Assembly (NCBI GenBank): GCA_029262815.1
Contig: JAJCYS010000038.1
Span: 15,182-79,181, forward strand
Source: Deltaproteobacteria bacterium
GTDB taxonomy: Bacteria; Bdellovibrionota; JAJCYS01
Length of the DNA stretch: 64,000 bases
Direction of reading: 5' to 3'
Shown here: positions 6,322 to 64,000 of the stretch, one piece after another
Position numbering within the stretch: the first letter of the stretch is position 1
Layout of the letters: each line of letters starts with the position of its first letter
Translations under genes and position numbers: made by a program
Notes under the pieces: model-generated
What the model was told of the DNA's origin: nothing
What the model saw: only the letters and a program-made list of their open reading frames with translations
Databases searched by the model: none

Positions 6322-6384
6322 TACACAAAGAAAAATGATAAATTTTTCATACCTTTACGGTACTTTCTTCGGTAAACTTAAAGT

Positions 6385-6690: not shown

Positions 6691-6739
6691 CACAGTCATT
6701 TACTCTTTTTTTTTCTACACTGAAGTATAATGCCTACCT

Positions 6740-9417: not shown

Positions 9418-10125
9418 TTAGATATCTATTGTTTTGGGCAGTTCTTGTTTTTTTTCTTCAACCTTTAATTGATCAGGCCGGATGTATTTATAAGTCTTAA
9501 CAGATTTTTCGGGGTTGTAATGTTTTTGGACCCATTCTTCGATGTCCATTTCTTTTTGGTGTGGTTTATAAGATTTTATGATGGTTTCAAACGTACAAGT
9601 TCCTGTACATAGATGGCCAAACTTATGGGAAAAAGATTTTCTCGCTTCTTTGGCGGACTCACCGTGAATAATAATTCTTGCTAATGCGCTAGCAAAACTG
9701 GTTCGATCCGCACCAGCTTTACAATGAATGAGTACTATTTTTTTCTCAGCTTTCACTTTTTTGATGGCTTGAATTAAATCGATTAGTAACTTCTTGTTGG
9801 GAAATCCGCCTGTCGCATTGAGATATGGCTTTGCATCGCCGATATCAAAAAACATGTCATAATAATCGACACCCAATTTTTTGACGACTTTCTTCTCTTC
9901 TTCGTAGTAGGACTGACCTACTTTAACCCCGTTTAGGTTAATCACAGCTTGTACGTTGTTAATCGTTAAAACTTCTTCAAGTTTAGACGCGTCTAATTGA
10001 GCCGTACGAAGAATTTTATGAGGATGGCTGGGATCTCCAACTTGATGGATGTTATTACCGCATCCCGAAAGAGTAACGGCAGCAAATCCAAGATAAACCG
10101 AAACGGTTAGAATATTTGCATTCAT
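9418..10125 (-). CDS. lipoprotein Cys-based protein phosphatase (CX5R, PTP/dual-specificity-like)
   Basis: HCKAGADRTS P-loop; N-terminal signal peptide with lipobox-like LSGC. Confidence 0.65.
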   Translation of the reverse strand: MNANILTVSVYLGFAAVTLSGCGNNIHQVGDPSHPHKILRTAQLDASKLEEVLTINNVQAVINLNGVKVGQSYYEEEKKVVKKLGVDYYDMFFDIGDAKPYLNATGGFPNKKLLIDLIQAIKKVKAEKKIVLIHCKAGADRTSFASALARIIIHGESAKEARKSFSHKFGHLCTGTCTFETIIKSYKPHQKEMDIEEWVQKHYNPEKSVKTYKYIRPDQLKVEEKKQELPKTIDI

Positions 10126-10181: not shown

Positions 10182-10335
10182 CAATAGGTGCCAAAAGGTA
10201 GCCGGGGAACCTAAGAGCTATTCCAAAAGGTAGCCGGGGAACCTAAGAGCTATTCAATAGGTGCCAAAAGGTAGCCGGGGAACCTAAGAGCTATTCAATA
10301 GGTGCCAAAAGGTAGCCGGGGAACCTAAGAGCTAG
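10182..10335. repeat. tandem array of four direct repeats (41, 32, 41, 41 bp), family A, core CCAAAAGGTAGCCGGGGAACCTAAGAGCTA
   Basis: Read directly: units at 10182-10222, 10223-10254 (truncated), 10255-10295, 10296-10335. The last unit abuts the stop codon (10336-10338) of the minus-strand gene. No spacers, so not CRISPR. Confidence 0.9.
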
Positions 10336-29486: not shown

Positions 29487-29537
29487 TGCCAAAAGGGTGC
29501 CGGGGAACCTTAGTGCTTTGGGGAACCTAAGTGCTTT
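29487..29537. repeat. family A repeat, 1.5 units (TGCCAAAAGGGTGCCGGGGAACCTTAGTGCTTTGGGGAACCTAAGTGCTTT)
   Basis: Same GGGGAACCTAAG core as the 10182-10335 array; here upstream of the plus-strand CDS 29605-31929. Confidence 0.7.
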
Positions 29538-29604
29538 CCCACCTACTTCCAAACAGCAATTCCTGATATACTACTCACAAGAAATTAGATTCGAGGGGGA
29601 AAGA

Positions 29605-31929
29605 ATGAGATTTCTGAATGTTTTAACTGTACTTTTTTTTATCGGCACGGCAATTGAATTTGAATCATGCAATCCGGCGCCCCCAGCGGACAACAATGTA
29701 GCTGCAGCTCCTGGAGTCGACGATTCAGTTGTTGACATAGAAACTCTAGGTGGTGGCGGAGGCGGTTCCGATAATCCGGATGACACAACTACGGTTTGCC
29801 AGGAAGGAGACATAGATGACAAAGTTGCTGCGGGCACTACAGCTCTATTGTCTGGTGAAGTCGACACAGGTGCGACACCTATAGTCGTTGTATGGCCAAC
29901 TAATGGAGATTCCTGGCTCAGCGGGTTTGAGACAAATACAGACCCTGGAATTCTATTCGATAGTGTAGATTTAACCGGTACATTTGGTGAACTGGGCGCT
30001 ACTGGCGGTACCGGGGACGATACGGATGCTAACTTTTTACTTCAAAATGGCTCTGACGACGTATTCTATCTTGAGGTTACAGGCCGTTTTTCGTCTGCTG
30101 TAGGGGACTACGAAGACGCAGCCCTATCTGCTGATGCAGATTTTATCGGAACTGTGCTTGATGGTACTGGAGATTTAAGTACCTGTTTTGAATATCCGAT
30201 TACAGATGGCACAACACCCAGCTTAACTAACCTAAATGGGGCAAATGATCATTGTAGCGACATCGTAGCCTCAGGGCCACCGACCGGTACTCGAGTTTGG
30301 TACGTAACGGTTGTCGATGATGTGTCAGCAACTTCCGGCACAGCTGCACGAAAACAAGTCGGCACATGTACGGGGGGAGCAGTATGTGTTTCTTTGACCT
30401 CTGAATCAGGTTTCAATTCTGAAGTAGAGGACGTCAATCAAGAAGGCACTTTTGTATTTGTTCGAAACGGCGATGGCACAGCTGCAGCACCCCTCACTGG
30501 CAATCAGTCCATCTATCGATTCACGGTTGCGTCACCTACAACCGCACCTGTCCGGCTCACAGACGGCACTCAAGGTGCTTGTACAGCTGCAAGATTATTC
30601 GGAGATTCGGCCGCCAGCTCTGCTGGTACTGTCCTCTTGACCGCATGTGGTGGCGATGTCTGGGGCATCACTGACCCCTTTGGTACAACACCCGGTTCAC
30701 CGATTTTGTTATTCGATCACGCCACGGTGGACATTGATGTTCTTGTAGGAAGTCCTATGGAATCAGACAAAACGGGACGAGGTTTCACACGTGTTGCCAT
30801 TCCGTCTATGACAACGCCTACAAAAAAATCTGTCATAGCCACCAATACCCCTGTTGGCCTGAATTGTAATGCCGGTGGTAGCGGCACAGCTGCCTTGTCT
30901 TCATTCAGCTTCCTTTGGAATCTGGGCACCGCGACCTCTGGTTTTTCAAGCCTACTCAGACTTGTCAGTGGCTATAATCTGGGTAATGTACGCGATAGTC
31001 ATCTGGGAAAAGATGCAAACGGGGATTTTATTCGATTTGTAGTGTACGATAGCGACCCACAACGTGTGTACGCTTACTTTATCGGAGACAATATTGGCTT
31101 TCCGTTTGTAGCAGTTCGAACCAGGAGTGATACGGACACCTTCCTTGGCATGCATGTCACCAAAGACTTTATTTATGTTTTAGCGAGCAACATGAAAGTG
31201 TACCGCCGATCCAACACAGCAAAATGGGGAACACTGGGAAAAATTGAAAATGAAGTCGATGACTGGACACTCGTCACAACCATGCCAATGGGCACAAAAT
31301 CAATTGTCGTAGACGATTCCGTAGCAGGCGCACTTGATATCTTTTACGATGGCGATAGCCTAATTGATTCAAATAGAGCTTTTCTAAAACAAGGGTATAC
31401 CGTCGCTGGCACGACGTTCACACCTGTCGGCGTGCCGATCGAAAAATATAATTCTGGCTCATCATCAAATACATTACACGTTGATGATCTAACAAAAGTG
31501 GGTTCTCGTAGAAGCCTTTTTGGCCGCGATGACAATGGTAGTATTGTTAAGCCTATCATTGCTGATGTGCTTGATCCCACAAAATCTGTGGGGGACATGA
31601 GTTCCTTTGCCGGACTATCCTCGTGCCCCGCTGGGACGATGCGTGAACTCGTAGCGACGACCGACCCTGCATACAAAAAACTTGGCGGCCCAGATCCATC
31701 ATCTGGCACGTTCACATTTCACGCAACTGTTCTGGCTCCCTGCGGAGGCATTGACGAAGTCTGGGGCATCAATACCTTTGATAGAGTTTCTACATTTACA
31801 TCGACCGACCCCACTAGTCACAACAATTTTGGCACCACACCTGCAGGATGTAAGATTAATGGCCTTGAAATTCCAGAACCCGTAACTGCTGCAACTAAAA
31901 TAGATTGCCCACCCTTTGATACGCCATAA
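29605..31929 (+). CDS. large secreted Gly/Thr/Asp-rich protein, unknown function
   Basis: Start at ATG 29605 (MRFLNVLTVLFFIGTAIEF, signal peptide) preceded by GGGGGAAAG. 774 aa with no recognised catalytic motif; Gly-run GGGGGG near N-terminus. Confidence 0.6.
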   Translation: MRFLNVLTVLFFIGTAIEFESCNPAPPADNNVAAAPGVDDSVVDIETLGGGGGGSDNPDDTTTVCQEGDIDDKVAAGTTALLSGEVDTGATPIVVVWPTNGDSWLSGFETNTDPGILFDSVDLTGTFGELGATGGTGDDTDANFLLQNGSDDVFYLEVTGRFSSAVGDYEDAALSADADFIGTVLDGTGDLSTCFEYPITDGTTPSLTNLNGANDHCSDIVASGPPTGTRVWYVTVVDDVSATSGTAARKQVGTCTGGAVCVSLTSESGFNSEVEDVNQEGTFVFVRNGDGTAAAPLTGNQSIYRFTVASPTTAPVRLTDGTQGACTAARLFGDSAASSAGTVLLTACGGDVWGITDPFGTTPGSPILLFDHATVDIDVLVGSPMESDKTGRGFTRVAIPSMTTPTKKSVIATNTPVGLNCNAGGSGTAALSSFSFLWNLGTATSGFSSLLRLVSGYNLGNVRDSHLGKDANGDFIRFVVYDSDPQRVYAYFIGDNIGFPFVAVRTRSDTDTFLGMHVTKDFIYVLASNMKVYRRSNTAKWGTLGKIENEVDDWTLVTTMPMGTKSIVVDDSVAGALDIFYDGDSLIDSNRAFLKQGYTVAGTTFTPVGVPIEKYNSGSSSNTLHVDDLTKVGSRRSLFGRDDNGSIVKPIIADVLDPTKSVGDMSSFAGLSSCPAGTMRELVATTDPAYKKLGGPDPSSGTFTFHATVLAPCGGIDEVWGINTFDRVSTFTSTDPTSHNNFGTTPAGCKINGLEIPEPVTAATKIDCPPFDTP

Positions 31930-47844: not shown

Positions 47845-47927
47845 AGTACAACCTAATTTGAACAAACCCAGTTTTGTGTCACATATGTGGGTTTCGTCAA
47901 TTTTTATTAATTTAAGAGGAGGAAACT

Positions 47928-48431
47928 ATGAATTTAAAAGTTTTATCAGTCGCGTTGGTCGCAAGTTTTTTGGTTGTTACAGCGTGCAGCAGCAGCAAAT
48001 CACCTAAGGGCAAAAGTGATGCCGCAAGTGTTTCTATGTCAATTTCAGCAAAAAACAATAAATTCGAATTGAATGTTGATAAATTTAAGATTGAAGCTTT
48101 GAAGGAAGTCAAAAATACAGATGCTATGAAAGCGCTTAAAGATCTAAACGGTAGCTTCTCTATCGCACGTAAGGCAGAGAATGACATCACAAGTGGCAAA
48201 TGGGTTCATACGGATGGTGACAAAGTACATTCAATTGCATTCACCAACGAAAACAATGTCTGGACATTCGCTAATGAAATCACTGGCGTCAAAGCGGACC
48301 ATGCGATGGCTATCTGGGCAAAACAAAAATCTACCATTACAGCTACAAAAGATGGCGGATTCACCATGTCTTTGACTTTGGCTGACAAAGACACTAAAAA
48401 CGTAACCGTTTCTGTACCGTTTAAGAAGTAA
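47928..48431 (+). CDS. lipoprotein, unknown function
   Basis: RBS AGAGGAGGAAACT before ATG; MNLKVLSVALVASFLVVTACSSS lipobox. Confidence 0.6.
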   Translation: MNLKVLSVALVASFLVVTACSSSKSPKGKSDAASVSMSISAKNNKFELNVDKFKIEALKEVKNTDAMKALKDLNGSFSIARKAENDITSGKWVHTDGDKVHSIAFTNENNVWTFANEITGVKADHAMAIWAKQKSTITATKDGGFTMSLTLADKDTKNVTVSVPFKK

Positions 48432-48462
48432 GTACTAACCTACCCAACTGTAGGTCAAAAAA

Positions 48463-48497
48463 ACCTGGCGTCATTTAATTGGCGTCAGGTTTTTTTA
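48463..48497 (+). terminator. intrinsic terminator (stem with G-U wobbles, T7 tract)
   Basis: ACCTGGCGTCA ... TGGCGTCAGGT followed by TTTTTTT; A-tract upstream. Confidence 0.5.
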
Positions 48498-48605
48498 TTT
48501 GCTCCTCCACAGTGTTCTTTATTGACCTACGGCCTCCACCCTGCTTGGTTTAAATATGGTATTATGGTACTGTGGGAGCTGATTTTAGAGCCGGAGGGTA
48601 GTCAT

Positions 48606-49238
48606 ATGCGTCGGGGAATTCTTTTTTTTACACTTATAGCTGCATGTTTTGCAGGATGCAAATCGGATGTTGAAAAACGCCAAAAGTTGGATGAGTTCAT
48701 GCTCTCCATCACATCAAAAGCTTATATCTTCAAAGGACTGACTGTAACCAAGACTGTTAAGTCAAAAGAAGTGAGAACAGATGGCAAAACCTGGCTGGCA
48801 TATTTTACAGACAAGGTCTTTCCGAACGTTCCAGATGATGTGGAAAGAGATCTTAGGCTGATACTTGATAACAAAGACAAATTCGTAGGATCAGAGTTCA
48901 AACTAGGTGCCGCTGCGTGGCGATATACTCGAAACTCAGAAAAATTCCCTCTCGAAAAAAATGGCATGATTGAGTGGAAACGTGCTGATGGGGGGAGCTT
49001 ATTTAGACCTGATTATTTACAAAACGAAACATATTTTTCATTTTTTGGCCCTTTCGGTACAGGGACAGTTGCCAAAGACGCTGAGTTAGAGGACTACGAA
49101 AAGCCTCTTATTCGTTTTTTTCAAAAAAAGAAACTAGAAGTCACTGCTGAGGACAACAAGCAAGAAAAACTCAAGCTTAATTATTACATAGAAGGCATTG
49201 TTGCTTTCTCTCTCAGCTTTGAGCAAAAGAAAGAGTAA
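48606..49238 (+). CDS. lipoprotein, unknown function
   Basis: Start at ATG 48606 (MRRGILFFTLIAACFAGC) with GGAGGG upstream; the ORF-track start at 48522 is an extension. Confidence 0.6.
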   Translation: MRRGILFFTLIAACFAGCKSDVEKRQKLDEFMLSITSKAYIFKGLTVTKTVKSKEVRTDGKTWLAYFTDKVFPNVPDDVERDLRLILDNKDKFVGSEFKLGAAAWRYTRNSEKFPLEKNGMIEWKRADGGSLFRPDYLQNETYFSFFGPFGTGTVAKDAELEDYEKPLIRFFQKKKLEVTAEDNKQEKLKLNYYIEGIVAFSLSFEQKKE

Positions 49239-49265
49239 ACCATCATCAGAAGAGGAGGACATCTC

Positions 49266-50132
49266 ATGAGATATAGCCGATTTTATTGCCTTCTGGCATG
49301 TTGCATGGTGCTTACAAGCTGCACACGTAACAACACCGAACCGACTGCGAAGTTCTTATCTGTCCTATTTACCTCACATGCGGCACTGCTAAATGCAACC
49401 AAAACGCCAAGCGCTGAGAATGATAAAAATTTAAAATTTTTTAGAATGACACATGGTCGATATTTTGGGAATGAGATGGAAACATTCGCAAAATTTGATG
49501 CTATCTACAAAGGGGAACTTTATTGGCTGTTCAGTCAGGGACCTGATCGTGAAACATACATTTGGATGGTGTACAAACTGCCTGAAGGCATGCCCTCAAC
49601 TCTACAGACAAAAAAAGATGAAAAAGATAAGAAGAAGGATGAAAAAGATAAGGAAAAAGAGGTTGATCCCAAAAAACCACTTGTCGGCTGCTCGCAATTT
49701 ATGATGTCGATTGAAACGACATACGAAGGCGGATTGGCCTATGCCTATGATACTGAGTTGCCCACTATTAGCATGGGGCCTTGGATACAAATGGATTATT
49801 CCGGGGAAAAGCTGGCTATCAAAAAGTTAAGCACAAAATACATTAATTCGTTCTTTACGCTTATCCAGCATGAGAGTGGAAGCATCAAAGCACGTTGGCA
49901 GAGTGACAGCTCTATAGCAAGAATCAAAATATCCCGCGTTAGACCCGTAGAGCCCTATGCCTATGTTGATTTAGTTCCAGCTGAACCAACTGCATACATT
50001 AAGGATGCGCTAAGGAAGAATGTTAGATACACGTTTTTGAAACACACGATAAAAAAATCAATTAAAAAGAAAGATGAGAAGGAAGACACTGAAAAAGATA
50101 AAAAAGACAACAAGGAAACCAAAGAGGATTAG
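49266..50132 (+). CDS. lipoprotein with Lys/Asp/Glu low-complexity segments
   Basis: MRYSRFYCLLACCMVLTSC lipobox; KKDEKDKKKDEKDKEKE internal and KKKDEKEDTEKDKKDNKETKED C-terminal tracts. Confidence 0.6.
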   Translation: MRYSRFYCLLACCMVLTSCTRNNTEPTAKFLSVLFTSHAALLNATKTPSAENDKNLKFFRMTHGRYFGNEMETFAKFDAIYKGELYWLFSQGPDRETYIWMVYKLPEGMPSTLQTKKDEKDKKKDEKDKEKEVDPKKPLVGCSQFMMSIETTYEGGLAYAYDTELPTISMGPWIQMDYSGEKLAIKKLSTKYINSFFTLIQHESGSIKARWQSDSSIARIKISRVRPVEPYAYVDLVPAEPTAYIKDALRKNVRYTFLKHTIKKSIKKKDEKEDTEKDKKDNKETKED

Positions 50133-50135
50133 ACC

Positions 50136-50702
50136 ATGAAATTTCTGATCACTGCCTGTGTGTACAGCATCTTCATCTTTGGAAGTATCGGCTGTAAATC
50201 CAAAAATCCTGCGGATTTAAAACGAACAATCGAAAGTGGGCGTCAATTCTATGAATTGGTGGGCGTCAGCAGTCTTGATTCTGGGTATAAAGATTTACGC
50301 AAAGAAGTCAGTTTCTGGCACTTTGGCCCTAAACGGTTGACAATTCTTTTGAACAAAGCGACACAAGAAGCCACAAAACCAGCAACAGTTGAACGACCTG
50401 ATGGGCTTTTTTATGGGCCGCTCAGTGCATTCAAAAAAATCAAGACTTCTGATCGATTGCTAGCGGGGTCAGACAGATTGAAGGGCAGAACATTAAGACT
50501 CAAAGAGTGGCCCCAGCAAATGAAGGCTTTTATCATGCGTCAGCAAGCAGATGGTAGCCTAAAAAAAGACGTTGAGCTGACATTCAAAAAAGTGGATTTA
50601 CCGAGTGCGAAATTTTCTGTGATTTGGCCGGATCATCTGAAGGCTCCGGAGCCTTTGAAGCCCAAAGAACAAAAGCTGCAACCCATCTCCTCCAAAAAGT
50701 AG
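50136..50702 (+). CDS. lipoprotein, unknown function
   Basis: MKFLITACVYSIFIFGSIGC lipobox; 188 aa. Confidence 0.6.
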   Translation: MKFLITACVYSIFIFGSIGCKSKNPADLKRTIESGRQFYELVGVSSLDSGYKDLRKEVSFWHFGPKRLTILLNKATQEATKPATVERPDGLFYGPLSAFKKIKTSDRLLAGSDRLKGRTLRLKEWPQQMKAFIMRQQADGSLKKDVELTFKKVDLPSAKFSVIWPDHLKAPEPLKPKEQKLQPISSKK

Positions 50703-50731
50703 ACGGATCGCAGCTTTTTGAGTTCAAACTA

Positions 50732-52078
50732 TTATTTTTTCCTCCAATCTTTCCATTTGTTTTTCCAATAGTCTTTGGTCTGCTCCAGCGCACCTTTTTC
50801 TTGTTCTTTAACTTTTGGTTTTAACCCATACTGACGATTAACCTCATTTAAAGTTTTGTTATATTCTGCATTTAACTCATTGATCTCCAGCTGAAAATCC
50901 TGCTTATCTTCAAGAGTAAGGGCGGGTTTCACGTCTTTCTTTTGTCTCTGATTAAATTCGTTCACTTTTTCAAGATATGCTTTTTGTTGTTTTTTACTCT
51001 TTTCTTCAAGTTTAGCAAACGCTTCATCACCTATGTACTTATCACTTTGACTGCTACTTTTGTCATCTTCTTCGGCACTCTTCTCTTGCGAGTTACCATC
51101 CTGTGATTTGCTAGAGTCGTCTTGTTGTTTAGTTTCGCCCTCTTGGGAATTGCCATCATCATTTGATTGGTTGTCGTCTTCTTTAGTTTCTTCAGATTTA
51201 CTATCATCAACTTGTTTTACAGTCTTTTGAACAGGCCCTTTAACAATCGGCTTCCCTTTGCTTAGCAGCTGACCTTTTTTATTAATGGTTACGTCATTTA
51301 TATCCACCGCTTGAAATCCAACTTCCATCGTAAACTGCACGGTTACCGTGCTCGCTTCAGTTACTTTTGCAGCTGCTCGAATAAACCCTTCATTTTTAGT
51401 TGGTGTAAATATAAGTTCAGGCACACGGGGACAAATCTGAGTAAATGAGCATTTCAATGTTACATCTAAATTTTCTTCGTAAGGTTTCCGAACGATGAGC
51501 TCCTCTTTCGCATTTTCCATATCCAAGTGAGTCGGCAATGGACGAATCGGTCCACTCCAAATCAACCCATTAATGGTATCGCCATTTTTGATCTCATATG
51601 GTGAGACCCAAGGATTTTTTGCATCTCGTTTTTCTGCAATAAAATCAACAAACGTACCTTTCTCTTGCTCAGTATCCCAATAAAACATCCGTATTTTGAA
51701 AGCCCCTAGTCCTTCTTTAGGAAAAAAGTACACAAATTTACCGTTCAATGTCGTCTCAGGCTTGCCCTTATACTGGAATGGTTCTCCTAGGAATGACTTA
51801 ACACCCTTATCGACCGCTGCCTGTGCCCTCGTTTTAATAAACGCATAATGATCACTAACCACAGTCCCTTTTAGCTCCTCAGGTAGAGGTACAAACCATT
51901 TATCTGTGTTCTTTTGAGTTAATTCCTCTTTGGTGACCTTTACAACATCTTCTTTCTTCAGCACCTGCATCAGCTTTTTATTAAACTCTTCTTCCTTGAG
52001 AGGAACGCCGCAGCCAACAAACACCAAAATACATACAATTGCAATAAAAAATTCTTGTTTTTTCATATATTTCAACAT
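50732..52078 (-). CDS. lipoprotein with acidic low-complexity linker, unknown function
   Basis: Start at 52078 (MLKYMKKQEFFIAIVCILVFVGC) preceded by AAAGAGGTG; acidic Ser/Asp/Gln-rich linker then Lys-rich coiled-coil-like tail. Confidence 0.6.
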   Translation of the reverse strand: MLKYMKKQEFFIAIVCILVFVGCGVPLKEEEFNKKLMQVLKKEDVVKVTKEELTQKNTDKWFVPLPEELKGTVVSDHYAFIKTRAQAAVDKGVKSFLGEPFQYKGKPETTLNGKFVYFFPKEGLGAFKIRMFYWDTEQEKGTFVDFIAEKRDAKNPWVSPYEIKNGDTINGLIWSGPIRPLPTHLDMENAKEELIVRKPYEENLDVTLKCSFTQICPRVPELIFTPTKNEGFIRAAAKVTEASTVTVQFTMEVGFQAVDINDVTINKKGQLLSKGKPIVKGPVQKTVKQVDDSKSEETKEDDNQSNDDGNSQEGETKQQDDSSKSQDGNSQEKSAEEDDKSSSQSDKYIGDEAFAKLEEKSKKQQKAYLEKVNEFNQRQKKDVKPALTLEDKQDFQLEINELNAEYNKTLNEVNRQYGLKPKVKEQEKGALEQTKDYWKNKWKDWRKK

Positions 52079-52294
52079 GTTACACCTCTTTAGGTTGCGA
52101 AAACTTCTTTTCAGTTGACCATAAAAAATAAGTTTAAGCAATTTAAAAAACACTAATCGTTTTATCGGTTATTTAGCTAATAGTTTTAACAGTTTATGCA
52201 TCTATTTAATATTTAATGAATTTATATACTTACACTAAATATTTTATTTATAAATGTCGATCAGACGGTGAGGTTTCATGAAGGAGGGGGGAAG

Positions 52295-53023
52295 ATGAGC
52301 TATTTCAACAACCGTTTGGTGGTGTGTGCGTTTTTGGGCGCGGGGCTGCTGATATTGCCTGCCCAAAGCAATGCGTTCCAACCTAATGACGCTGGCCTTG
52401 CAACACCCGACAACTTTGATCAGATGCCGATTCAGTACCACAACGGCTCACAAGCAAGCCCCTATGACGCTCCTCAAGGTTATGACATGCCCCAACGAGA
52501 TCTCCCTGCAGCTCCTGAGATTCCGCGACAGCCCGCTCAATTCCCGACTGCGCCTAACTTGAACGCCCCCCAAGATATTCAACAGGGCTATGATGCTCCG
52601 CCGCAGTACAACAGCTACCCACAGAATCAAAACCCGTACCCTGATGTTCAACGAGATCCCAACAGTGATTATATGGATAAACAGCCCCCCCCTAATATGC
52701 AACAAGGATATGACTCACTGCCTCAAAGTAACAGCTACCCTCAAACTCAAAACCCCTATCCAGATGTTCAACGAGACCCTGAATCACTCAATGATTCTGA
52801 TCCGTTTGATCAAAATCAATATGACCAAAACCCTCAAGATTATCCTTCTGAATTCATTGATTCAGGAGAACCAGACGCAAATCTACCTCAGGCGGATCGA
52901 CTACCTCTGCAAACACCTTTTGAGCCCCCACAGATTGATGATTTCTCACCTGAGCAAGAGTTACAAAATCCACAACCCTATCCTGAATTTGACCAACAAC
53001 AGCTGGATGACATTCGACAGTAA
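52295..53023 (+). CDS. secreted Pro/Gln/Tyr/Asp-rich repeat protein
   Basis: Start at ATG 52295 after GAAGGAGGGGGG; signal peptide ...LPAQSNA; internal direct repeat QQGYDxxPQxNSYPQxQNPYPDVQRDP occurs twice. Confidence 0.6.
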   Translation: MSYFNNRLVVCAFLGAGLLILPAQSNAFQPNDAGLATPDNFDQMPIQYHNGSQASPYDAPQGYDMPQRDLPAAPEIPRQPAQFPTAPNLNAPQDIQQGYDAPPQYNSYPQNQNPYPDVQRDPNSDYMDKQPPPNMQQGYDSLPQSNSYPQTQNPYPDVQRDPESLNDSDPFDQNQYDQNPQDYPSEFIDSGEPDANLPQADRLPLQTPFEPPQIDDFSPEQELQNPQPYPEFDQQQLDDIRQ

Positions 53024-53179
53024 GATAGATTGCTTCGGATAGTACGCCTGCGACGACAGATGGATCCCTGCCTCCGTGTATAGTCCCGAAAGATTGCAAG
53101 TATAGAAAGGAAGTGATAAGAGGGATAGAGTACAGCAACGGCCTGACACCGCCATCTCTACCAAAATATCGAATCGTCT

Positions 53180-55654: not shown

Positions 55655-57802
55655 CTATAACATATGCAACACTTCGCGCTCTTTTGCAAATGTAAAACGC
55701 TCAGCATAAGAAAAACGCTCAGAAAAGGTGTGTAAACGGTCCTCAACATAGGTCACCCCGAGAGATTTAGCATAGGCCATGATCCCTCCCTTATATGGCG
55801 GGAACCCTGCACCGAAGACCATCCCAACGTCAATCCACTCTGGCCCAGATACCACTTTCTCGTTGACCAGGCGACACCCTTCCGCAAGCATAGGTAATAT
55901 CAAACGATCTTTAATATCCTCATCCGTCACAGACACAGGCGCCTGCCCACGTGCCACATGTTTGGCAATGGATTGGCAATAAGACTCGTCTAAAGAGGGT
56001 TTCTTGCTGTCATAGGTATAAAACCCTTTTTGTGTCTTTCGCCCTAACCGGCCTGCCTGGATCATTTGATCCAACCCAGCTGGTACAGCATATCGATCCC
56101 CATGTTGTTCAAACAAAATTCGTGCCACATGGTTTCCGATGTCTATGCCGATCTCATCTAGTAACCTCAATGGCCCCATCGGCAATCCAAAATTCTTAGC
56201 AAGTTTTTCCATTCTCGCCGGAGCCACACCATCAGCCAAGAGTTGGACCCCTTCATTGAGATACATCCCCAGCATACGGTTCACCACAAATCCGGATGTA
56301 TCCTGACACACCAAGGGGAATTTGCCCAACTTGACCACAAATTGGCACAGACGATCAATGATCTCTGGATCAGTCTGTTTACCCTGAATGACCTCCACAA
56401 GAGGCATTCGAAGTACGGGGTTGAAAAAATGTAATCCTGCAAACCGCTCAGGATGCTTCAACTTCGCACCCACTTCTGACAATGGGAGTGAACTCGTATT
56501 GGTTACCAAAATACAATCTTTTGAAATAACCGACTCAAGCTCAGAAAAAACTTTATGCTTAACATCCAAATCCTCAAACACAGCTTCAATCACACAATCT
56601 AGCCCGTCAAATCCGTACGGATCGGTCTGTAGCCGAAGGTTGCGCTGGACATCAGCCGCCCACCGAGACCAAACTTTTCGTGAGGATTTATGGGCCGATT
56701 TTAATGATTTTTGAACAACATCTAAATTTAAATCTCGACATCGCGTAAAAATACCGGATTTTGCAGCGCTCAAAGCGATGCCAACGCCCATTACACCCCC
56801 TCCAATGACGCCTAGGGTAGCCAATGGGGGTTGGGAGGTTTTCACTCTGCCAATTTTTTTTGACGATTCAGAGAGATTAAAGACCCGAATTAAATTCTTT
56901 GATGTCTCTGTAATAGCAGTTTTAGCAAACGCACGATTCTCTATTTCAAATGCTTTACTTTCAGGTAGAAAATATGTTTGACGCACAACTTCACATACAG
57001 CAGAAAGCGCCGGATAATTTTTACGCATCGGTTCAATTGATTTACGAACCATATAAACCACGAGCGGCGTAAACGCCAGTTTAAACCCCGATACTGCAGT
57101 GCGCTTCTGACCATGTTTCCGAATCATTTGGGCACACACATCTGGCCCTGGCACAACATGCTCATCCACCAATACGTCGACCATATTCAGACGTTTTGCA
57201 GCACGGGGAGTTAATGCCTTACCCTTTAGAATAAGCTCTAGGGCAGATTTTGGCCCAATACGTCTAGGTAATAATACTGTTCCCCCGAAGCCAGGAATAA
57301 TACCCAATTTCGTCTCCGGTAAACCAACCTTGTATTTGGGGTTTTTGTTCATCGCTATGACGTCACAAAACAAAGCAAGCTCGTAACCACCACCCAAGCA
57401 TGTGCCATTCAACCAAGCAATGGTCTTGGCTTTTAAGGCTTTAAACCGTCCAAACACAGCTTTTCCAGCTTCTGCTTTTTTGATGGCATCTTCTTCCTGA
57501 GTAATGGACTCAATCATTGAAATATCAGCGCCCGCTAAAAAGATACCTGGTTTTGCACTTCGAAATACAAGCACCTCAGCCTCTTCAGCTAACGTTGTAT
57601 TCAGAAACGCGCCTAATTCTTGCATGAATTCGAACGTTAAAATATTTGCAGATCGACCGTGGGTATGAAACTGAAGTTCACAGTAATTACCCCCACTTGG
57701 AAGCACACCCGTAACCACCGTAAAGTTTTGATACGGTTCTCCTAAAGAAGTCTGATCTTGATTTTTTGAATTATGCGACTGATTGAATCCAGAGAGCTCC
57801 AC
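55655..57802 (-). CDS. fatty-acid oxidation complex alpha subunit (enoyl-CoA hydratase / 3-hydroxyacyl-CoA dehydrogenase, FadJ/FadB-like)
   Basis: N-terminal crotonase-fold domain then NAD-binding GVIGGGVMGVGIA; 715 aa; downstream of the thiolase gene (fadIJ-like order). Confidence 0.85.
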   Translation of the reverse strand: MELSGFNQSHNSKNQDQTSLGEPYQNFTVVTGVLPSGGNYCELQFHTHGRSANILTFEFMQELGAFLNTTLAEEAEVLVFRSAKPGIFLAGADISMIESITQEEDAIKKAEAGKAVFGRFKALKAKTIAWLNGTCLGGGYELALFCDVIAMNKNPKYKVGLPETKLGIIPGFGGTVLLPRRIGPKSALELILKGKALTPRAAKRLNMVDVLVDEHVVPGPDVCAQMIRKHGQKRTAVSGFKLAFTPLVVYMVRKSIEPMRKNYPALSAVCEVVRQTYFLPESKAFEIENRAFAKTAITETSKNLIRVFNLSESSKKIGRVKTSQPPLATLGVIGGGVMGVGIALSAAKSGIFTRCRDLNLDVVQKSLKSAHKSSRKVWSRWAADVQRNLRLQTDPYGFDGLDCVIEAVFEDLDVKHKVFSELESVISKDCILVTNTSSLPLSEVGAKLKHPERFAGLHFFNPVLRMPLVEVIQGKQTDPEIIDRLCQFVVKLGKFPLVCQDTSGFVVNRMLGMYLNEGVQLLADGVAPARMEKLAKNFGLPMGPLRLLDEIGIDIGNHVARILFEQHGDRYAVPAGLDQMIQAGRLGRKTQKGFYTYDSKKPSLDESYCQSIAKHVARGQAPVSVTDEDIKDRLILPMLAEGCRLVNEKVVSGPEWIDVGMVFGAGFPPYKGGIMAYAKSLGVTYVEDRLHTFSERFSYAERFTFAKEREVLHML

Positions 57803-59057
57803 CTTGTCCTCCTCCTATACAAAGGCTCGCCAGGCCTTGGTTCAATTTCTCTTTTTGTAAGTAGCGACTTAACGTTAGTACCAATCGTGCACCCGAAGCC
57901 CCTAATGGGTGCCCCATGGCGATAGCTCCTCCGTTGGGATTTAAAGTTTCAAGGTTAGGCATCCCAAGCGTCTCTTCAGATTTTGCGATCTCTTTGATGC
58001 ATGCCAATACTTGGGCCGCAAATGCCTCGTTGATCTCTAAAACATCCATATCCTTCCATGTCATGTTGTGCTTTTCGAGGAGCGTTCGCGTTGCAAATGC
58101 TGGACCTAACCCCATACGTTTGGGGTCACAGCCTGCAAAGGCATAGTCTTTTAAAACCGCAATAATAGGCAGCCCCAAAGCTTTGGCTTTATTTTCACTC
58201 GCGACGAGGAGGCCTACCGCACCGTCTGTAACTTGCGACGCATTGCCAACGGTGACACTGCCACCCAGACGTTGAAAAATCGGTTTAAGTTTGGCGAGTT
58301 TTTCGGATGAGGAATCTCCACGAATACCGTTGTCCGCAGCTACAACATGAGCTGAATGCCCATTCACGACGGGCCGAACTTCTCCTTCAAAAAATCCTGA
58401 TTCCCAAGCTTTGGTTGCCTTATGATGGCTACTTACGGCGAAAGCATCTTGTTCCTGACGACTGATGTCATATTCTTGAGCAAGCACTTCAGCAGTGCTG
58501 CCCATGATTAGATGCGCGATGGGATCCGTCAATCCCTCTATCAAAGTGTTAATGGGCTTTAAGTCTTTGGGTCGTATTTTTGAAAATACTTTTAATTTTT
58601 GGATAAAACTCTTAGCACGCATGAGCGGTTCTAGCTTGCTTTTGAAAGAAAGTGGGTACCGCATAGGGTAGAAGCTCATAGATTCGACGCCCCCAACCAT
58701 GACCAGTTCAGAGCGACCCAACCAAATCTGATTCATCGCATGAGTCACAGCATCTAACCCTGATGAACAATTTCGAGCCACCGTATAGGCTGGGATACGC
58801 TTTGACAGCGACGTCTTCAGTTGAATGACACGGGCAATATTGGGCGCCATTGATGATTGGCCTACACACCCAAAAATGACTTCACCCACATGGTCTCTCA
58901 CTTTTGGAAAAGCTGCCAGCAAGTCATTGACCACATACGCACCTAAGTCCTCTGGTGCGACATTTCTGAGGGTACTTCCGGCCTTAACAAACGGGGTACG
59001 AACACCAGCACAAAGAACGACCCGGGGCTTTTGACTGCTCATCTTCACATCACTCAT
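57771..59057 (-). CDS. 3-ketoacyl-CoA thiolase (acetyl-CoA C-acyltransferase, FadI/FadA-like)
   Basis: Thiolase blocks VARNCSSGLDAV (active Cys) and C-terminal CIGGGQGGALWI; 428 aa. Confidence 0.85.
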   Translation of the reverse strand: MSDVKMSSQKPRVVLCAGVRTPFVKAGSTLRNVAPEDLGAYVVNDLLAAFPKVRDHVGEVIFGCVGQSSMAPNIARVIQLKTSLSKRIPAYTVARNCSSGLDAVTHAMNQIWLGRSELVMVGGVESMSFYPMRYPLSFKSKLEPLMRAKSFIQKLKVFSKIRPKDLKPINTLIEGLTDPIAHLIMGSTAEVLAQEYDISRQEQDAFAVSSHHKATKAWESGFFEGEVRPVVNGHSAHVVAADNGIRGDSSSEKLAKLKPIFQRLGGSVTVGNASQVTDGAVGLLVASENKAKALGLPIIAVLKDYAFAGCDPKRMGLGPAFATRTLLEKHNMTWKDMDVLEINEAFAAQVLACIKEIAKSEETLGMPNLETLNPNGGAIAMGHPLGASGARLVLTLSRYLQKEKLNQGLASLCIGGGQGGALWIQSVA

Positions 59058-59131
59058 ACGGGTTAACCCACCTTTAACAAAGACTGATCTAACAAAAATT
59101 TCATGTACATCATACCATTATTGAACTATCT

Positions 59132-59473
59132 TTGTTCGCAATGATACTGTATAAAACGATGATCCGGGGCTTTCTGTTCGCTACCAGCTTAACCCTGTCT
59201 GGATGTCAAAATGCACCGACACCACAACACTTCCAAGTATCCCTCAAAACCCTCATCGAACAAAAACCTAACCTTGTCCAAACACTAGATCATTATGGAT
59301 TACTCGTTGTTGATGCAACCTCTGGGCAGATAGTCGCACAACGCACTCATCTCACTCCCGGCACAAAATTAAAGCTTCTGCTTAAGAAAAATACCCCCTA
59401 TTTTATTCTTATTATTGCCAAAGATGCCTCTGGCACGCTCCTATACGCCAAAGAGACTCTCGAGACATTTTAG
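59132..59473 (+). CDS. small lipoprotein, unknown function
   Basis: Signal peptide with lipobox LSGC; 113 aa. Confidence 0.5.
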   Translation: MFAMILYKTMIRGFLFATSLTLSGCQNAPTPQHFQVSLKTLIEQKPNLVQTLDHYGLLVVDATSGQIVAQRTHLTPGTKLKLLLKKNTPYFILIIAKDASGTLLYAKETLETF

Positions 59474-59521
59474 GTTTCTAGCCCCTCCTACTCTCCCTTC
59501 TTGCCCCCAAGCCACTATCAT

Positions 59522-59556
59522 GTCATTTTCGACGAGATTGCTTCGTCGAAAATGAC
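59522..59556. terminator. perfect 14-bp palindrome GTCATTTTCGACGA-GATTGCT-TCGTCGAAAATGAC
   Basis: Read directly. Lies between the lipoprotein gene and the 5S terminator; no flanking U-tract, so it may be a protein-binding or RNA-processing site instead. Confidence 0.35.
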
Positions 59557-59567
59557 GGTAAAAAGAC

Positions 59568-59603
59568 AAAAAAAAATCCAAGGGATAAACCCTCGGATTT
59601 TTT
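59568..59603 (-). terminator. intrinsic terminator of the 5S rRNA gene
   Basis: On minus-strand RNA: AUCCGAGGG-UUUAU-CCCUUGGAU (9-bp stem with one G-U) followed by U9. Confidence 0.65.
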
Positions 59604-59607
59604 TAAA

Positions 59608-59721
59608 GTTGCGCTGTACTACTCTCCCACAGGGCTACCCCTGCAGTACCATCGTCGCTGAGGAGCTTAACTGCCGAGTTCGGAATGGGATCGGGTGTTT
59701 CCTCCTTGCTATCAGGACAAC
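59608..59721 (-). rRNA. rrf: 5S ribosomal RNA (solitary)
   Basis: Minus-strand sequence ...CCGAUCCCAUUCCGAACUCGGCAGUUAAGCUCCUCAGCGACGAUGGUACUGCAGGGGUAGCCCUGUGGGAGAGUAGUACAGCGCAAC aligns block-for-block with bacterial 5S (CCGAACUC, GUUAAGC, CGAUGGUACUG, GGGAGAGUAG). Ends are +/-5 nt. Confidence 0.85.
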
Positions 59722-59726
59722 GAAAT

Positions 59727-59756
59727 CAAGGTATCAAGCGACCCCTCTCAAGTCAA
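59727..59756 (-). promoter_or_regulatory. candidate sigma70-type promoter for the 5S gene (TTGACT -35, weak TACCTT -10)
   Basis: On minus strand: AAAAGCTTGACTTGAGAGGGGTCGCTTGATACCTTGATTTCG then the 5S 5' end; spacing and -10 are imperfect. Confidence 0.3.
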
Positions 59757-59834
59757 GCTTTTGTTTGTTATACTAGGGTTGCACGATTAACACGTTCTCT
59801 ATCTGGCACGTGCGTGTTTCGAACGGGATGTTCT

Positions 59835-62120
59835 ATGACTGAAAAAGCCCAACGATGGGTATTTATCTTGTTTCTACTTATCGGGTCCTTATGGGTGGGT
59901 CCCCGGTGGATTCCCGCAGAGTGGCTCAAAGAAACCCTCGAGTCCTGGGTCACCACACATATGGGATTTACCCTCCAAACGGACAGTGTGGCTCTGTCGT
60001 TATTTCCGACCACCCAGCTCGTATGCAAAGACGTCACATTTTCTGGCGCCCCCCTTCCGTTCTCGCTCCAGACTACTGGCACCATCTCGCGGATGATACT
60101 GAAGTTTTCTATGATTAAAACGGCTTTGACCGGCCGACCCTTTGTCAACGTCCTGCTTGACGGTGCTCAGCTTGAAATTACGCCACATGAGCCACCCAAA
60201 GACCCCCTTCCCTACGTTGTCTTATCTTCACTCTTTATTAGGTCGAGTGACGCAGTCCTAACCCTAAAAAAAAACCGTATCCCCACAACCCTACATTCAT
60301 TTCAAATTGTTTTTGAGCCTAAGCGTAAAACGGCAACCTTACAAGGTGATATAACCCTACCCGAGTTTGCGCCAAAACCTGGATCACGTTTATCCACACA
60401 GATGACTTTGAACGGTTCAGTTGAGGCCCTCGAAGACGGCTCTCTATACATCCCACAGCTCAGGTTCCGAGCCAAAAATTTTAGCTACGTTTCTCTCGCC
60501 TACCAAATCAAACAAGGTCGAGGCCCTTTCTTTATGACCGCTTCGGGACTCTCTCTCTCTCGAGAAGGGTCTGGCACGGTAAAATCCCTTTTTCTCGGAC
60601 TCAATGACCACACCTTACAACTCACTGGACAATTTCAGACAACGCCTTTTCGTTTTATCGGACGGCTAGCCCCTTTTGAAACAACATTCAAAGACTTCCC
60701 TTTCGAATTGCTTCAAGATACGTTCCCAGGTGCTTCGGGAATAATCACCTTAAACAACCCGATAGGGCTGTCCTACACACACAGTCCCAAATCCGAATTG
60801 CAAATGGATCTTAAGGGGATCGCATTAAAAAATCTGTCTTGGCCCACACCTTGGTTCCTGCTTGAAGAGCCCGAGGCACGCCTATCTGGAAAACTATTTT
60901 TTCATCCCAAAGCAGGAATTCAACCATCGCGAATTGAATGGCGTAACGGTAAACTTGAGCTTGCACACAGTACATTGCTTATGGAAATCTCTACAGAGCC
61001 TGATGTAAACCGCACAGAAATTACACTTCAGCCTTTTGAACTTGATCTTTCACAAATTCCTCAGATCTTTGAAACGTTTCTTGGGTTCAAACACACGAGC
61101 GGCTTACTCACCAGTGCCACACCGTTGACCATTTCTAAAACAGAAAATACAACCGCGTTAGCAGGTCGATTACGAATCGATGAGGGCATAGGCACATGGC
61201 AAAAACAATGGCAGGTAGCAGGACTCACAGCTGATATGGTATTGGGGACACCAAAATCAGATCTCACTTTATCCATAAACAGCCTGACTCAAAAAAATGG
61301 GTGGCAACTCAAAAACCTTACTTTGCAAGGCAACCTGGCTCAAACAGGCGTATGGGAACTCAATCGATTCGCCACACAATTTAAAGACGGTACAGTTGTT
61401 CTAAAGGGCGGTGTGTTTGATCCAATTGCACATACGTTTACAGCAAAGTCTTTAAAAGGTTTTTTTGATCTTACAAAGTCTCGCGTACTCAATCATGTTG
61501 CTCCAAAAGCAAATTTAAGTTTAACGGGCAATCTTCGTTTTCAGATTAACCGCATGGGCATCCCGCTCACCCCGACGACACATCAGCCCAAATGGCATAA
61601 AATGGTCGGAGCATTTGAAAGTGAAATTGCGAATTTTTCCTGGCGTGACTTTGATATGCAAACCCCTTTTACAGAGCTGCTCGAATCATATTATGATCAG
61701 CTGCGAACTCGACGGGTTCGATCGCGTACCCTCGCAACTGAAACCATTCCCACATTAGAAACAACGTACAAAGGTACCATGAAGGGACAATTTTCCTCTC
61801 AGAATGTGATTGTCTCAGAGAGTACATTTTTCAATGCCACTAGTACATTCACCTTAAAAGGGAAAACAACAAAACTACCCGTGCCCCTTCAAAAAACACG
61901 TATAGATTTAAATGGCACGTACATCATCCACAAACCGGGATTTGCGGACCCTGTTATTCAAGAAATTCTACTAGATCCGAATCGGAACCTTCGCATTCCT
62001 GTTCAAATCCAAGGCACCCTTGGTAGACCTGATGCCTATTTTTTAAAAGCTGAAGCGTACCGAACTTTTGATCGACGTATTCAATCGCACCACATAGCCA
62101 AACCAACTAAGGGGCAATAA
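59835..62120 (+). CDS. AsmA-family protein (membrane-anchored, beta-rich envelope protein)
   Basis: Start at ATG 59835 (MTEKAQRWVFILFLLIGSLWV, single N-terminal TM); about 760 aa, repetitive beta-strand-like composition. The ORF-track start at 59685 overlaps the 5S gene. Confidence 0.6.
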   Translation: MTEKAQRWVFILFLLIGSLWVGPRWIPAEWLKETLESWVTTHMGFTLQTDSVALSLFPTTQLVCKDVTFSGAPLPFSLQTTGTISRMILKFSMIKTALTGRPFVNVLLDGAQLEITPHEPPKDPLPYVVLSSLFIRSSDAVLTLKKNRIPTTLHSFQIVFEPKRKTATLQGDITLPEFAPKPGSRLSTQMTLNGSVEALEDGSLYIPQLRFRAKNFSYVSLAYQIKQGRGPFFMTASGLSLSREGSGTVKSLFLGLNDHTLQLTGQFQTTPFRFIGRLAPFETTFKDFPFELLQDTFPGASGIITLNNPIGLSYTHSPKSELQMDLKGIALKNLSWPTPWFLLEEPEARLSGKLFFHPKAGIQPSRIEWRNGKLELAHSTLLMEISTEPDVNRTEITLQPFELDLSQIPQIFETFLGFKHTSGLLTSATPLTISKTENTTALAGRLRIDEGIGTWQKQWQVAGLTADMVLGTPKSDLTLSINSLTQKNGWQLKNLTLQGNLAQTGVWELNRFATQFKDGTVVLKGGVFDPIAHTFTAKSLKGFFDLTKSRVLNHVAPKANLSLTGNLRFQINRMGIPLTPTTHQPKWHKMVGAFESEIANFSWRDFDMQTPFTELLESYYDQLRTRRVRSRTLATETIPTLETTYKGTMKGQFSSQNVIVSESTFFNATSTFTLKGKTTKLPVPLQKTRIDLNGTYIIHKPGFADPVIQEILLDPNRNLRIPVQIQGTLGRPDAYFLKAEAYRTFDRRIQSHHIAKPTKGQ

Positions 62121-62745
62121 TTCCACCACTCACAATTAACTTAAACGCATCATCTACTTTCATATCTAGAGGCACCATATCCTTCAAGGGTACCACCAAA
62201 TAAAATCCTGATGTCGGGTTGGGAGACGTAGGTAAAAATACATTTGCGCACGGGACATCTACGTGTCCTTGAATTCTCAAAGAGGTGGTCTCATTTGTGA
62301 CAAAAGCGATCGCCCACAATCCCTCTCTCGGATAAGGAATGAGTACCACACGGCCAAAACGTTGCGTAGGATCTCCGAACATCGACCGAAATAATTGAGA
62401 TAATCCGGTATAAAGGGAGCCCACAATAGGCACGCGATGAATTGCGCTATCCCAGATGGATACAAAAAAACGACCCACGTAGTTCCGGACTAGAACACCA
62501 CAACAATAAATTATAAAAACAGCAATAACGAGCCCAATGCCAGGCAACTGAAAAATCCACCAATCTTCGATATTTAAACGCGTTGGCACCACTAGAATAA
62601 TGGCATCGATCCAACCCACCAGGACTGCAAGCACCCAAATGGTTAACATCGCAGGCATGACGACAAGCAATCCTGCTACAAAAGACTGCTGAAAGTAGCT
62701 AAAAACCTTGTTTTTGAGCCAAATTAGGGGGTCGATCCATCTCAT
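62107..62745 (-). CDS. DUF502-family membrane protein
   Basis: Start at 62745 (MRWIDPL); two TM helices; VFLPTSPNPTSGFYLVVP and LDMKVDDAFKLIVSGG C-terminal blocks typical of DUF502. Confidence 0.6.
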   Translation of the reverse strand: MRWIDPLIWLKNKVFSYFQQSFVAGLLVVMPAMLTIWVLAVLVGWIDAIILVVPTRLNIEDWWIFQLPGIGLVIAVFIIYCCGVLVRNYVGRFFVSIWDSAIHRVPIVGSLYTGLSQLFRSMFGDPTQRFGRVVLIPYPREGLWAIAFVTNETTSLRIQGHVDVPCANVFLPTSPNPTSGFYLVVPLKDMVPLDMKVDDAFKLIVSGGIIAP

Positions 62746-62856
62746 ACAGGCCACTCTAGCAGGTTGTGCCTCTTGACGCAAAAGGAAGCGTGCTGGTAGC
62801 ATGCAAAGTACTCTTATAGTTTTGTCATCATCACTTTAATCGAAAAGGAGCTTCGT

Positions 62857-64000
62857 ATGGATCCTATAGCTTATTACAACGAACACAAATCACATTATCT
62901 TGATGATCTTAAAACCCTTTGCCGTATTCCATCTGTGAGTCCCGCTGGGCATGATCCAAAGTACCTTGACGAGTGTGCGCAAACTATATTGTCGCTATGC
63001 CAAAAATACGACTTGAACAATACTGAAATCCTAACCTATGAAAACACACCGCCATATGTCTTGGGCCGGATTGGTGATGATCCCAACAAACCCACTTACA
63101 TCCTTTATGCGCATCATGATGTGCAACCCAAAGGCGACACATCAAAGTGGCTTTCAGAGCCCTTTGACGCGGTGGAACGAGACGGTCGACTTTATGGACG
63201 TGGCACATCAGACGACAAGGCCGCTATCTCACTCTATCTATCTGCTATTGATTCGTACCAGAAAGCCAAAGGAGAACTCCCTATCAACATCATTCTTCTC
63301 ATCGAAGGCGAGGAAGAAGTGGGATCTCCAAATTTGGGTAAATTTCTTGAAACCCATCTATCCTTGCTCCAAAGTGCACGTGGCACACTTGTTGCTGACG
63401 GTATGAATCATGATTCGGGACTGCCCACTATTAATATATCTCTTCGTGGAATCGCCATCGTAGAAGTAGAAGTACGATCTTTAAAAAACAAAGTCCACAG
63501 TGGCCTCTTTAGCGGCCCTACCCCTGATCCTGCCATGGCCCTAAGTAAGCTACTTGGCACATTGATGGATGACACGGGGCGGATTACTGTTGACGGATTG
63601 TACGACGACGTCGCCCCCCTGACGGAGGCTCAAAGTGCAAAATTAAGAGAATTGCCTTTTAGCGATGAAGAATTTCGTAAACAAGTCGGCATGTTGCCAA
63701 ACACACAGTTCATGCAACGTGAACACCACACGCTCGAAGCCCTTTGGCATCAACCTTCACTCGTGGTAAATGCGATTCAAGCATCGAGCAGAGCGGAGGC
63801 GAGTAATATTATTTGTGACAGTGCTTGGGCCCGCGTTGGTATCAGACTGGTCCATGCAATGGATCCACAAAAAACATTAAAGCAACTCAAAACGCACTTA
63901 GAAACACATGCTCCTTGGGGATGTGAAGTTGTGGTAACACCTGAAAAAGGGTTCTGCGAAGCTTGGTCTGCCAATATGGACGACGCTGTTTATACGGCAA
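62857..64000 (+). CDS. M20-family metallopeptidase (dipeptidase/ArgE/DapE-like), C-terminus beyond window
   Basis: Start ATG 62857 after AAAAGGAG; YAHHDVQP and GRGTSDDKA metal-binding blocks. Absent from ORF track because there is no in-window stop. Confidence 0.8.
   Translation, partial: MDPIAYYNEHKSHYLDDLKTLCRIPSVSPAGHDPKYLDECAQTILSLCQKYDLNNTEILTYENTPPYVLGRIGDDPNKPTYILYAHHDVQPKGDTSKWLSEPFDAVERDGRLYGRGTSDDKAAISLYLSAIDSYQKAKGELPINIILLIEGEEEVGSPNLGKFLETHLSLLQSARGTLVADGMNHDSGLPTINISLRGIAIVEVEVRSLKNKVHSGLFSGPTPDPAMALSKLLGTLMDDTGRITVDGLYDDVAPLTEAQSAKLRELPFSDEEFRKQVGMLPNTQFMQREHHTLEALWHQPSLVVNAIQASSRAEASNIICDSAWARVGIRLVHAMDPQKTLKQLKTHLETHAPWGCEVVVTPEKGFCEAWSANMDDAVYTA

Follow-up and report, generated by a model that had tools for sequence, protein, structure and literature searches.

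A solitary 5S rRNA gene with a promoter-like site and a predicted terminator, held in position in a very distant relative

The 5S rRNA gene and the genes around it

The window, by which we mean the whole 64-kb stretch of DNA analysed here, carries a 5S rRNA gene on its minus strand (Table 1). When the entire window is searched with cmscan, the Rfam 5S model (RF00001) scores 95.7 bits (E = 1.6e-19), where the gathering score is 38, and is covered over its full 120 positions without truncation; the same gene is recovered from an 8-kb sub-search against Rfam with an E value of 2e-20. This is the sole Rfam match at gathering threshold in the whole 64 kb. An earlier note, made from the letters of the sequence alone, had read a clear minus-strand 5S gene at 59608-59721 and had proposed RF00001 as the means of checking it. 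The significant full-length match agrees with that reading and shifts the ends by at most 2 nt. A second candidate RNA in the same region, a match to the HrrF sRNA family at 59570-59664, reaches 26.6 bits against a threshold of 77; we discarded it, taking the hairpin of the terminator that follows the 5S gene to be the cause of this chance match.

Aligned to RF00001, the window 5S has all the helices and loops of a standard 5S rRNA. Canonical base pairs are formed at 31 of the 34 model pairs, and one of the three non-canonical pairs is a C-C in helix I. The loop C and helix III segment CCCAUnCCGAAC is present in the alignment, as are the two loop E segments, GAUGGUA and GAGAGUA. Two lineage-specific substitutions fall in stretches that are usually conserved, with GGCAG in place of GGAAG and GCGACG in place of GCGCCG. 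The interval is a genuine and complete 5S rRNA gene.

No 23S or 16S rRNA gene is found in the 64-kb window at the Rfam gathering score, and ARAGORN finds no tRNA gene over the same length. A more permissive scan of 56000-64000 recovers no large- or small-subunit rRNA remnant at E ≤ 1, and the other weak matches lie far below threshold and are attributable to chance. We therefore rejected both a 23S relic and a tRNA linkage for this 5S. Upstream, a spacer of 112 nt separates the 5S from a divergent gene encoding a 761-residue protein, which together with a DUF502 gene and an M20 peptidase gene takes up 4.28 kb. Each of the three has an orthologue in a distant relative, represented by a 497-kb JGI metagenome contig (L003) that carries the Lon relative P0125 and whose sequence is also found in a Logan assembly made from a different run (L004). 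Because three orthologue-backed protein genes fill these 4.28 kb, there is no room in them for a 23S gene, in keeping with the earlier claim that none can precede the 5S.

Downstream of the 5S, no rRNA-like sequence appears for 59 kb. The first gene on this side is convergent and encodes a small lipoprotein whose lipobox comes after a hydrophobic stretch; beyond it lie genes for a thiolase, FadJ and Lon, all on the minus strand. Two ORFs near the 5S, 59501-59776 on the plus strand and 59768-60148 on the minus strand, have neither a family match nor conservation and were set aside as spurious. Genes for rRNA are usually co-oriented with replication, and because the plus-strand GC skew is negative through most of the window, the minus-strand 5S is probably co-oriented as well.

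Table 1. Features at the 5S locus, with protein identities between the window and L003
Feature	Position	Strand	Protein identity, window vs L003	Remarks
5S rRNA gene, 117 nt	59606..59722	-		RF00001, 95.7 bits, model 1-120
-35-like hexamer TTGACT	59751..59756	-		read from sequence; aligns with TTGACC of L003
Extended -10-like element TG-a-TACCTT	59728..59736	-		read from sequence
A/T-rich tract CTAGTATAACAAACAAAAGC	59757..59776	-		upstream of -35; read from sequence
Predicted intrinsic terminator	59560..59604	-		15-bp stem (59604-59570), 5-nt loop, T-run
Perfect 14-bp inverted repeat	59522..59556	.		7-nt loop; arms GTCATTTTCGACGA / TCGTCGAAAATGAC
Gene for 761-aa lineage-specific membrane-anchored beta-rich protein (predicted)	59835..62120	+	24% (E 3e-52)	divergent from 5S; orthologues in L003 and L126
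DUF502 gene	62107-62802	-	53%	further upstream of 5S
M20 peptidase gene	62857-63945 (tblastn)			runs to window end; 43.5% identity to relative's protein
Small lipoprotein gene	59132..59473	+	32% (E 8e-14)	convergent with 5S; lipobox LSGC; L003 orthologue
Thiolase gene		-	68%	
Lon gene		-	65%	

The ORF list gives the divergent neighbour as 59685-62120, a form of 811 residues that overlaps the 5S gene. The alignment of its orthologues covers the form beginning MTEKAQRW (ATG at 59835) from residue 7 onwards, and the 50-residue extension running over the 5S is unconserved; we therefore place the start of the gene at 59835, giving 761 residues, rather than at 59685. The earlier note had dismissed both this extension and ORF 59501-59776 as spurious, a judgement that holds for these two entries of the ORF list. 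The 811-residue form (P0001) stands on the public record, where its first 38 nt overlap the 5S on the opposite strand, and the sequence comparison indicates that the recorded start is almost certainly mis-called.

The protein belongs to a very small family, with just three members among 1.84 billion representative proteins: 59835-62120 in the window, 2828-5200 in L003 and 5835-8147 in a third lineage member (L126). The genes always adjoin a DUF502 gene and an M20 peptidase gene, and the three proteins are roughly equidistant from one another at 23-25% identity. The window protein has no Pfam or NCBIfam match even at E ≤ 10, and P0243 has no Pfam match at E ≤ 10. The L003 orthologue gives a sub-threshold AsmA match over its N-terminal 100 residues (19.2 bits vs 29.8) and a sub-threshold match to GspN. 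A profile search of the PDB with the neighbour protein returned nothing relevant. The AlphaFold model consists of an N-terminal helix followed by about 40 strands (mean pLDDT 52, pTM 0.39); Foldseek finds no match to it in the PDB at E ≤ 0.001, and the second-ranked structure is the bridge-like lipid-transfer protein LPD-3 (E = 6e-3, probability 0.20). These results are compatible with an AsmA-like protein, a label that they support weakly. The 5S had been described as lying between a small lipoprotein gene and an AsmA-family gene. The first half of this description stands, given the lipobox and the L003 orthologue of the lipoprotein, and the second is not established, since the window protein lacks a Pfam AsmA match and the one orthologue that has such a match falls below threshold.

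Promoter-like and terminator sequences in the flanks

Directly upstream of the 5S gene the sequence can be read as a promoter-like site, in which TTGACT is followed by 17 nt, the element TG-a-TACCTT and a further 5 nt before nucleotide 1 of the 5S. The site matches the consensus at 8 of 12 positions and has the TG extension in addition. A sigma-70 scanner calls no promoter anywhere in the window, this site included, and taken singly an 8/12 match is not above chance. In L003, the corresponding 5S is preceded by TTGACC (5221-5226), 17 nt, TACAGT (5244-5249) and 5 nt, and there the scanner does call the site, at 9/12. The spacers upstream of the two 5S genes are unalignable save for two blocks. 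The case for a promoter rests on the identical geometry in just two lineages, and not on the score of the window site. A comparable site in the same register precedes 2 of 102 control 5S genes, both with weaker -35 hexamers. Immediately before the -35 hexamer of the window lies an A/T-rich tract, and L003 has a counterpart, TTATTATACC, in the same place; the pair could possibly be UP-element-like, which we offer as a weak suggestion. The promoter-like sequence claimed in the earlier note thus corresponds to a site directly upstream of the gene that is read from the sequence and is positioned alike in L003.

On the other side, a predicted intrinsic terminator begins 1 nt after the 3' end of the 5S. 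Its hairpin has a folding energy of -20 kcal/mol (z = -6.2 relative to shuffled sequences), which, with the stem and T-run listed in Table 1, bears out the strong terminator that had been noticed at this point. An A-tract and a T-tract on either side of the hairpin would make it potentially bidirectional. L003 has a predicted terminator in the same place after its 5S, built on a different stem (dG -28, z -9.3). Between the window terminator and the stop codon of the convergent lipoprotein gene lies the perfect 14-bp inverted repeat of Table 1, which is followed by no T-run on either strand and has no counterpart in L003. The same interval of L003, between the 5S terminator and the small lipoprotein gene, holds a minus-strand gene for a RimI-like GNAT acetyltransferase (5549-6028) that the window does not have; it scores 72 bits against the ribosomal protein S18 acetylase model, below the cut-off of 86.

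Linkage in control species and position in relatives

To place the isolated 5S in context, we assembled a control set of at least 120 5S loci from species-representative genomes of many phyla with a degenerate pattern of the conserved 5S core, a procedure that biases the set toward species sharing the core of the window 5S. Linkage was counted over the 55 control loci whose available sequence extends 700 nt or more beyond the 5S on its upstream side. Among the matches listed, a 23S gene lies directly upstream of the 5S in all 55 species' loci, ending roughly 50-250 nt before it. In 54 of them the sarcin-ricin motif is found 291-521 nt upstream. The remaining locus (L009) appeared in the motif screen to be a second solitary 5S, a candidate that we rejected when Rfam showed a 23S directly upstream. 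The claim that unlinked 5S genes are uncommon is in accord with this count: linkage between 23S and 5S is the rule, and the window and L003 depart from it.

The 23S gene of L009, a Pseudomonadota MAG (JBDRLK010000302.1), is itself unusual. It lacks the exact sarcin-ricin motif, and its 3' part, corresponding to model positions 2086-2925 (840 positions), is spread over 1587 nt (1-1587), which suggests an insertion of about 750 nt, either an intervening sequence or an intron.

In L003 the arrangement at the 5S is the same as in the window. A solitary 5S gene at 5255-5371 (95.4 bits) is the one rRNA that Rfam identifies in 22.5 kb, and a 23S is likewise missing over the 5.25 kb upstream. The two contigs share the order M20 peptidase, DUF502, large divergent gene, 5S, small lipoprotein, thiolase, FadJ and Lon, and L003 continues to match the window through PpiD, MreC, PBP2, RodA, an aminotransferase and ExbB/ExbD. 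To judge from the protein identities in Table 1, the window organism and L003 are very distant relatives.

The two 5S genes are identical at 101 of 117 positions (86%). They differ in 18 alignment columns, nine of them at paired positions. From the window to L003, three pairs change on both sides in a compensatory manner (G-C to A-U, A-U to G-C and G-C to A-U), one changes on one side with pairing kept (U-G to C-G), one becomes unpaired in L003 (A-U to A-C), and one varying pair is non-pairing already in both. The three-way-junction fold of helices I-V is thus kept by pairing and covariation, in a comparison of just two sequences and with correspondingly thin statistics. The compensatory changes argue that the 5S is under selection for its fold, and therefore that it is neither a relic nor an assembly error.

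Both of these alternatives can be weighed further. A broken rRNA operon could leave behind a pseudogene or decaying remnant, a reading that the isolation of the gene from other rRNA genes, and nothing more, would suit. Such a remnant is hard to reconcile with a full-length match of 95.7 bits, not far below the 102-111 bits that Rfam gives for the three control 5S genes scored in this way, of which two demonstrably have a linked 23S. It is equally at odds with the 31 canonical pairs out of 34 and the compensatory changes relative to L003, with the promoter-like site and terminator kept in the flanks, and with the lack of any 23S remnant at E ≤ 1 in 56000-64000. We consider decay very unlikely. 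The draft status of the 102-kb source contig might instead raise the suspicion that a 5S fragment was misjoined into a protein-coding region during assembly or binning. Both junctions recur, however, in the independent 497-kb JGI contig and in the Logan assembly of another run, so that the arrangement is seen in three independent assemblies (the NCBI, JGI and Logan contigs), and the flanking genes are orthologous between the window and L003; an artefact of this kind is scarcely credible. We conclude that the 5S has been kept unlinked for a long time.

The earlier note had also raised the option of an extra regulatory 5S copy. A specialised paralogue or a 5S-derived regulatory RNA, serving as a condition-specific ribosome variant or as a decoy for 5S-binding proteins, could be read into the lineage-specific substitutions GGCAG and GCGACG. 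The GCGACG variant is absent from all 120 control loci among the matches listed and present in L003, which makes it a trait of the lineage rather than of a paralogue, and the standard helices and loops are all in place. The regulatory option is thus without support, and we hold it to be highly improbable.

The position of the 5S is not universal in the clade, being kept in two of the three lineages sampled. L126 (JGI 3300076213) retains the large gene, the DUF502 gene and the M20 peptidase gene, and has no 5S in 18 kb at the locus. A gene for a 914-residue PLD-like protein abuts the large gene (5682-5835) where the 5S would be, and the Lon gene of the L126 lineage (L005) occurs in a different context, with no FadJ preceding it. 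The PLD-like gene at the place of the 5S and the displaced Lon gene therefore put a rearrangement breakpoint exactly at the 5S position.

Transcription, copy number and known parallels

Considering the gene together with its flanks, we think it very probable that the 5S forms a functional transcription unit of one gene, separate both physically and transcriptionally from any 23S or 16S. We infer that RNA polymerase would start at a sigma-70-type promoter (TTGACT, 17 nt, TG-n-TACCTT). Because the -10 element ends 5 nt before the gene, the transcript would start at the mature 5' end or within about 2 nt of it. Transcription would then stop at the predicted intrinsic terminator that begins 1 nt past the mature 3' end. 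With start and stop at the ends of the gene, the primary transcript would consist of the 5S RNA and a 3' hairpin trailer of about 45 nt; this trailer would require trimming, and the 5' end would need scarcely any processing or none. The balance of 5S with 23S and 16S would be set by regulation at the promoter in place of co-transcription.

The main alternative concerns the copy number of the gene and not its function. Tentatively, and with slightly more doubt than belief, we suggest that the organism has no other 5S gene, that the uncoupling of this one from 23S is permanent and predates the divergence of the sampled members, and that the gene is transcribed without a leader. Were this so, the primary 5' end would be the mature 5' end, no endonuclease would be needed to mature it, and regulation at the promoter would be the sole control of rRNA stoichiometry. 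The gene might otherwise be a supernumerary, or orphan, 5S that is kept intact by gene conversion while most 5S RNA comes from canonical 16S-23S-5S or 23S-5S units. Orphan 5S copies beside 23S-5S units occur in Helicobacter pylori 26695, which provides a precedent; draft assemblies and MAGs frequently lack rRNA operons, making the absence of such operons from a 102-kb contig uninformative; and the third relative, L126, has no 5S at the locus. A dispensable spare would not, however, be expected to retain its position, promoter geometry and terminator while the neighbouring protein diverges to 24% identity. In addition, an exact 46-nt pattern of the window 5S has no other copy in the species-representative genomes, a collection that may not include the source genome. 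We regard a spare copy as possible, on balance rather unlikely.

The solitary arrangement as such is already known from Leptospira, Mycoplasma and Thermoplasma, and what is new here is the lineage. In Leptospira the rRNA genes are dispersed and each has its own promoter (PMC2229662, PMC2686494). As in the window, the Leptospira rrf gene stands alone among protein-coding genes and away from 23S; the difference is one of lineage, the nearest named relatives of the window's Lon protein being Bdellovibrionota, at 46-49% identity. By analogy of arrangement, the window 5S would work like the Leptospira rrf genes, a likeness claimed for the 5S gene and not for the unlinking of 5S, 16S and 23S from one another that Leptospira shows. 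In Mycoplasma hyopneumoniae, too, the 5S is remote from 16S-23S. Other mycoplasmas, M. gallinaceum for example, likewise have 5S copies far from their 16S-23S pairs (PMC11720521). This likeness to the window is combined with a different biology: mycoplasmas are host-associated and wall-less and have reduced genomes, whereas the window organism is a diderm with peptidoglycan, carrying genes for Lnt, ExbBD, PBP2 and RodA. The archaea Thermoplasma acidophilum and Nanoarchaeum equitans have each rRNA gene separate and under its own promoter (PMC2686494, PMC7761764). They share with the window a separate 5S gene and differ in their transcription machinery, and their dispersed rRNA genes are therefore of independent origin.

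Compared with the 5S of a canonical bacterial rrn operon, the window gene belongs to the same RNA family, has the same fold and is likewise followed by a terminator. The canonical 5S is co-transcribed within 16S-23S-5S and excised by RNases; the window 5S, in contrast, is preceded by a promoter-like spacer of 112 nt and then by a divergent protein gene. In Brachyspira, 5S stays with 23S and just the 16S is separated (PMC2650404), and the main survey of unlinked rRNA genes considers only 16S-23S linkage and never mentions 5S (10.1101/705046). The present case adds a lineage to a short list in which 5S stands apart from 23S, comprising Leptospira, some mycoplasmas and a few archaea. It offers a natural case for studying how 5S is balanced with 23S without co-transcription, and how a 5S that is not cut from a long precursor is matured. 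Automated pipelines that expect a 5S beside its 23S can miss such genes.

The gene content of the window, which includes ExbB/ExbD, Lnt, PpiD, MreC, PBP2, RodA, MurB/MurC and a fatty-acid synthesis cluster, points to a diderm with a peptidoglycan wall. We set aside SHMT as a taxonomic marker: it has three relatives at 63-68% identity and is then about 60% identical to everything else. Lon has four relatives at 65-68% and all others at 49% or less. Among the Lon matches listed, 15 of the 17 named organisms are Bdellovibrionota (Bdellovibrionales, Oligoflexia, Bacteriovoracaceae and Halobacteriovorax) and two are spirochaetes. We take the source to be an isolated deep branch, with a weakly indicated alliance to Bdellovibrionota. 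Two lineage-level 5S patterns have no match in JGI metagenome contigs, a collection that may not include the source genome. L003 (JGI 3300045452) comes from serpentinized groundwater wells in the Samail ophiolite of Oman (PMC9586279, PMC11176372), which hints at serpentinized groundwater as a habitat of this rarely sampled lineage.

Two further observations concern the window at large. Synteny between the window and L003 is long-range apart from the interval between Lon and PpiD. In the window this interval (47900-53050) contains about 5 kb of extra genes, mostly without a family match (50732-52153, 473 aa, is an example), and in L003 (12565-13260) it holds just a small HNH gene. Separately, the plus strand has six copies of a 16-nt motif, GGGGAACCTAAG(A/T)GCT, grouped at two intergenic sites (10204-10333 and 29502-29535), with none expected by chance. 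Four of the copies belong to a 41-bp tandem repeat, of 2.8 units with a 98% match, that lies between ORF 9418-10125 and ORF 10336-12198; the other two sit just before or at the start of an 810-residue ORF, 29497-31929. Each cluster has CCAAAAGG(T/G)(A/G)GCC in front of it, and the motif could represent either a site bound by a protein or a small repeat of the dispersed kind.
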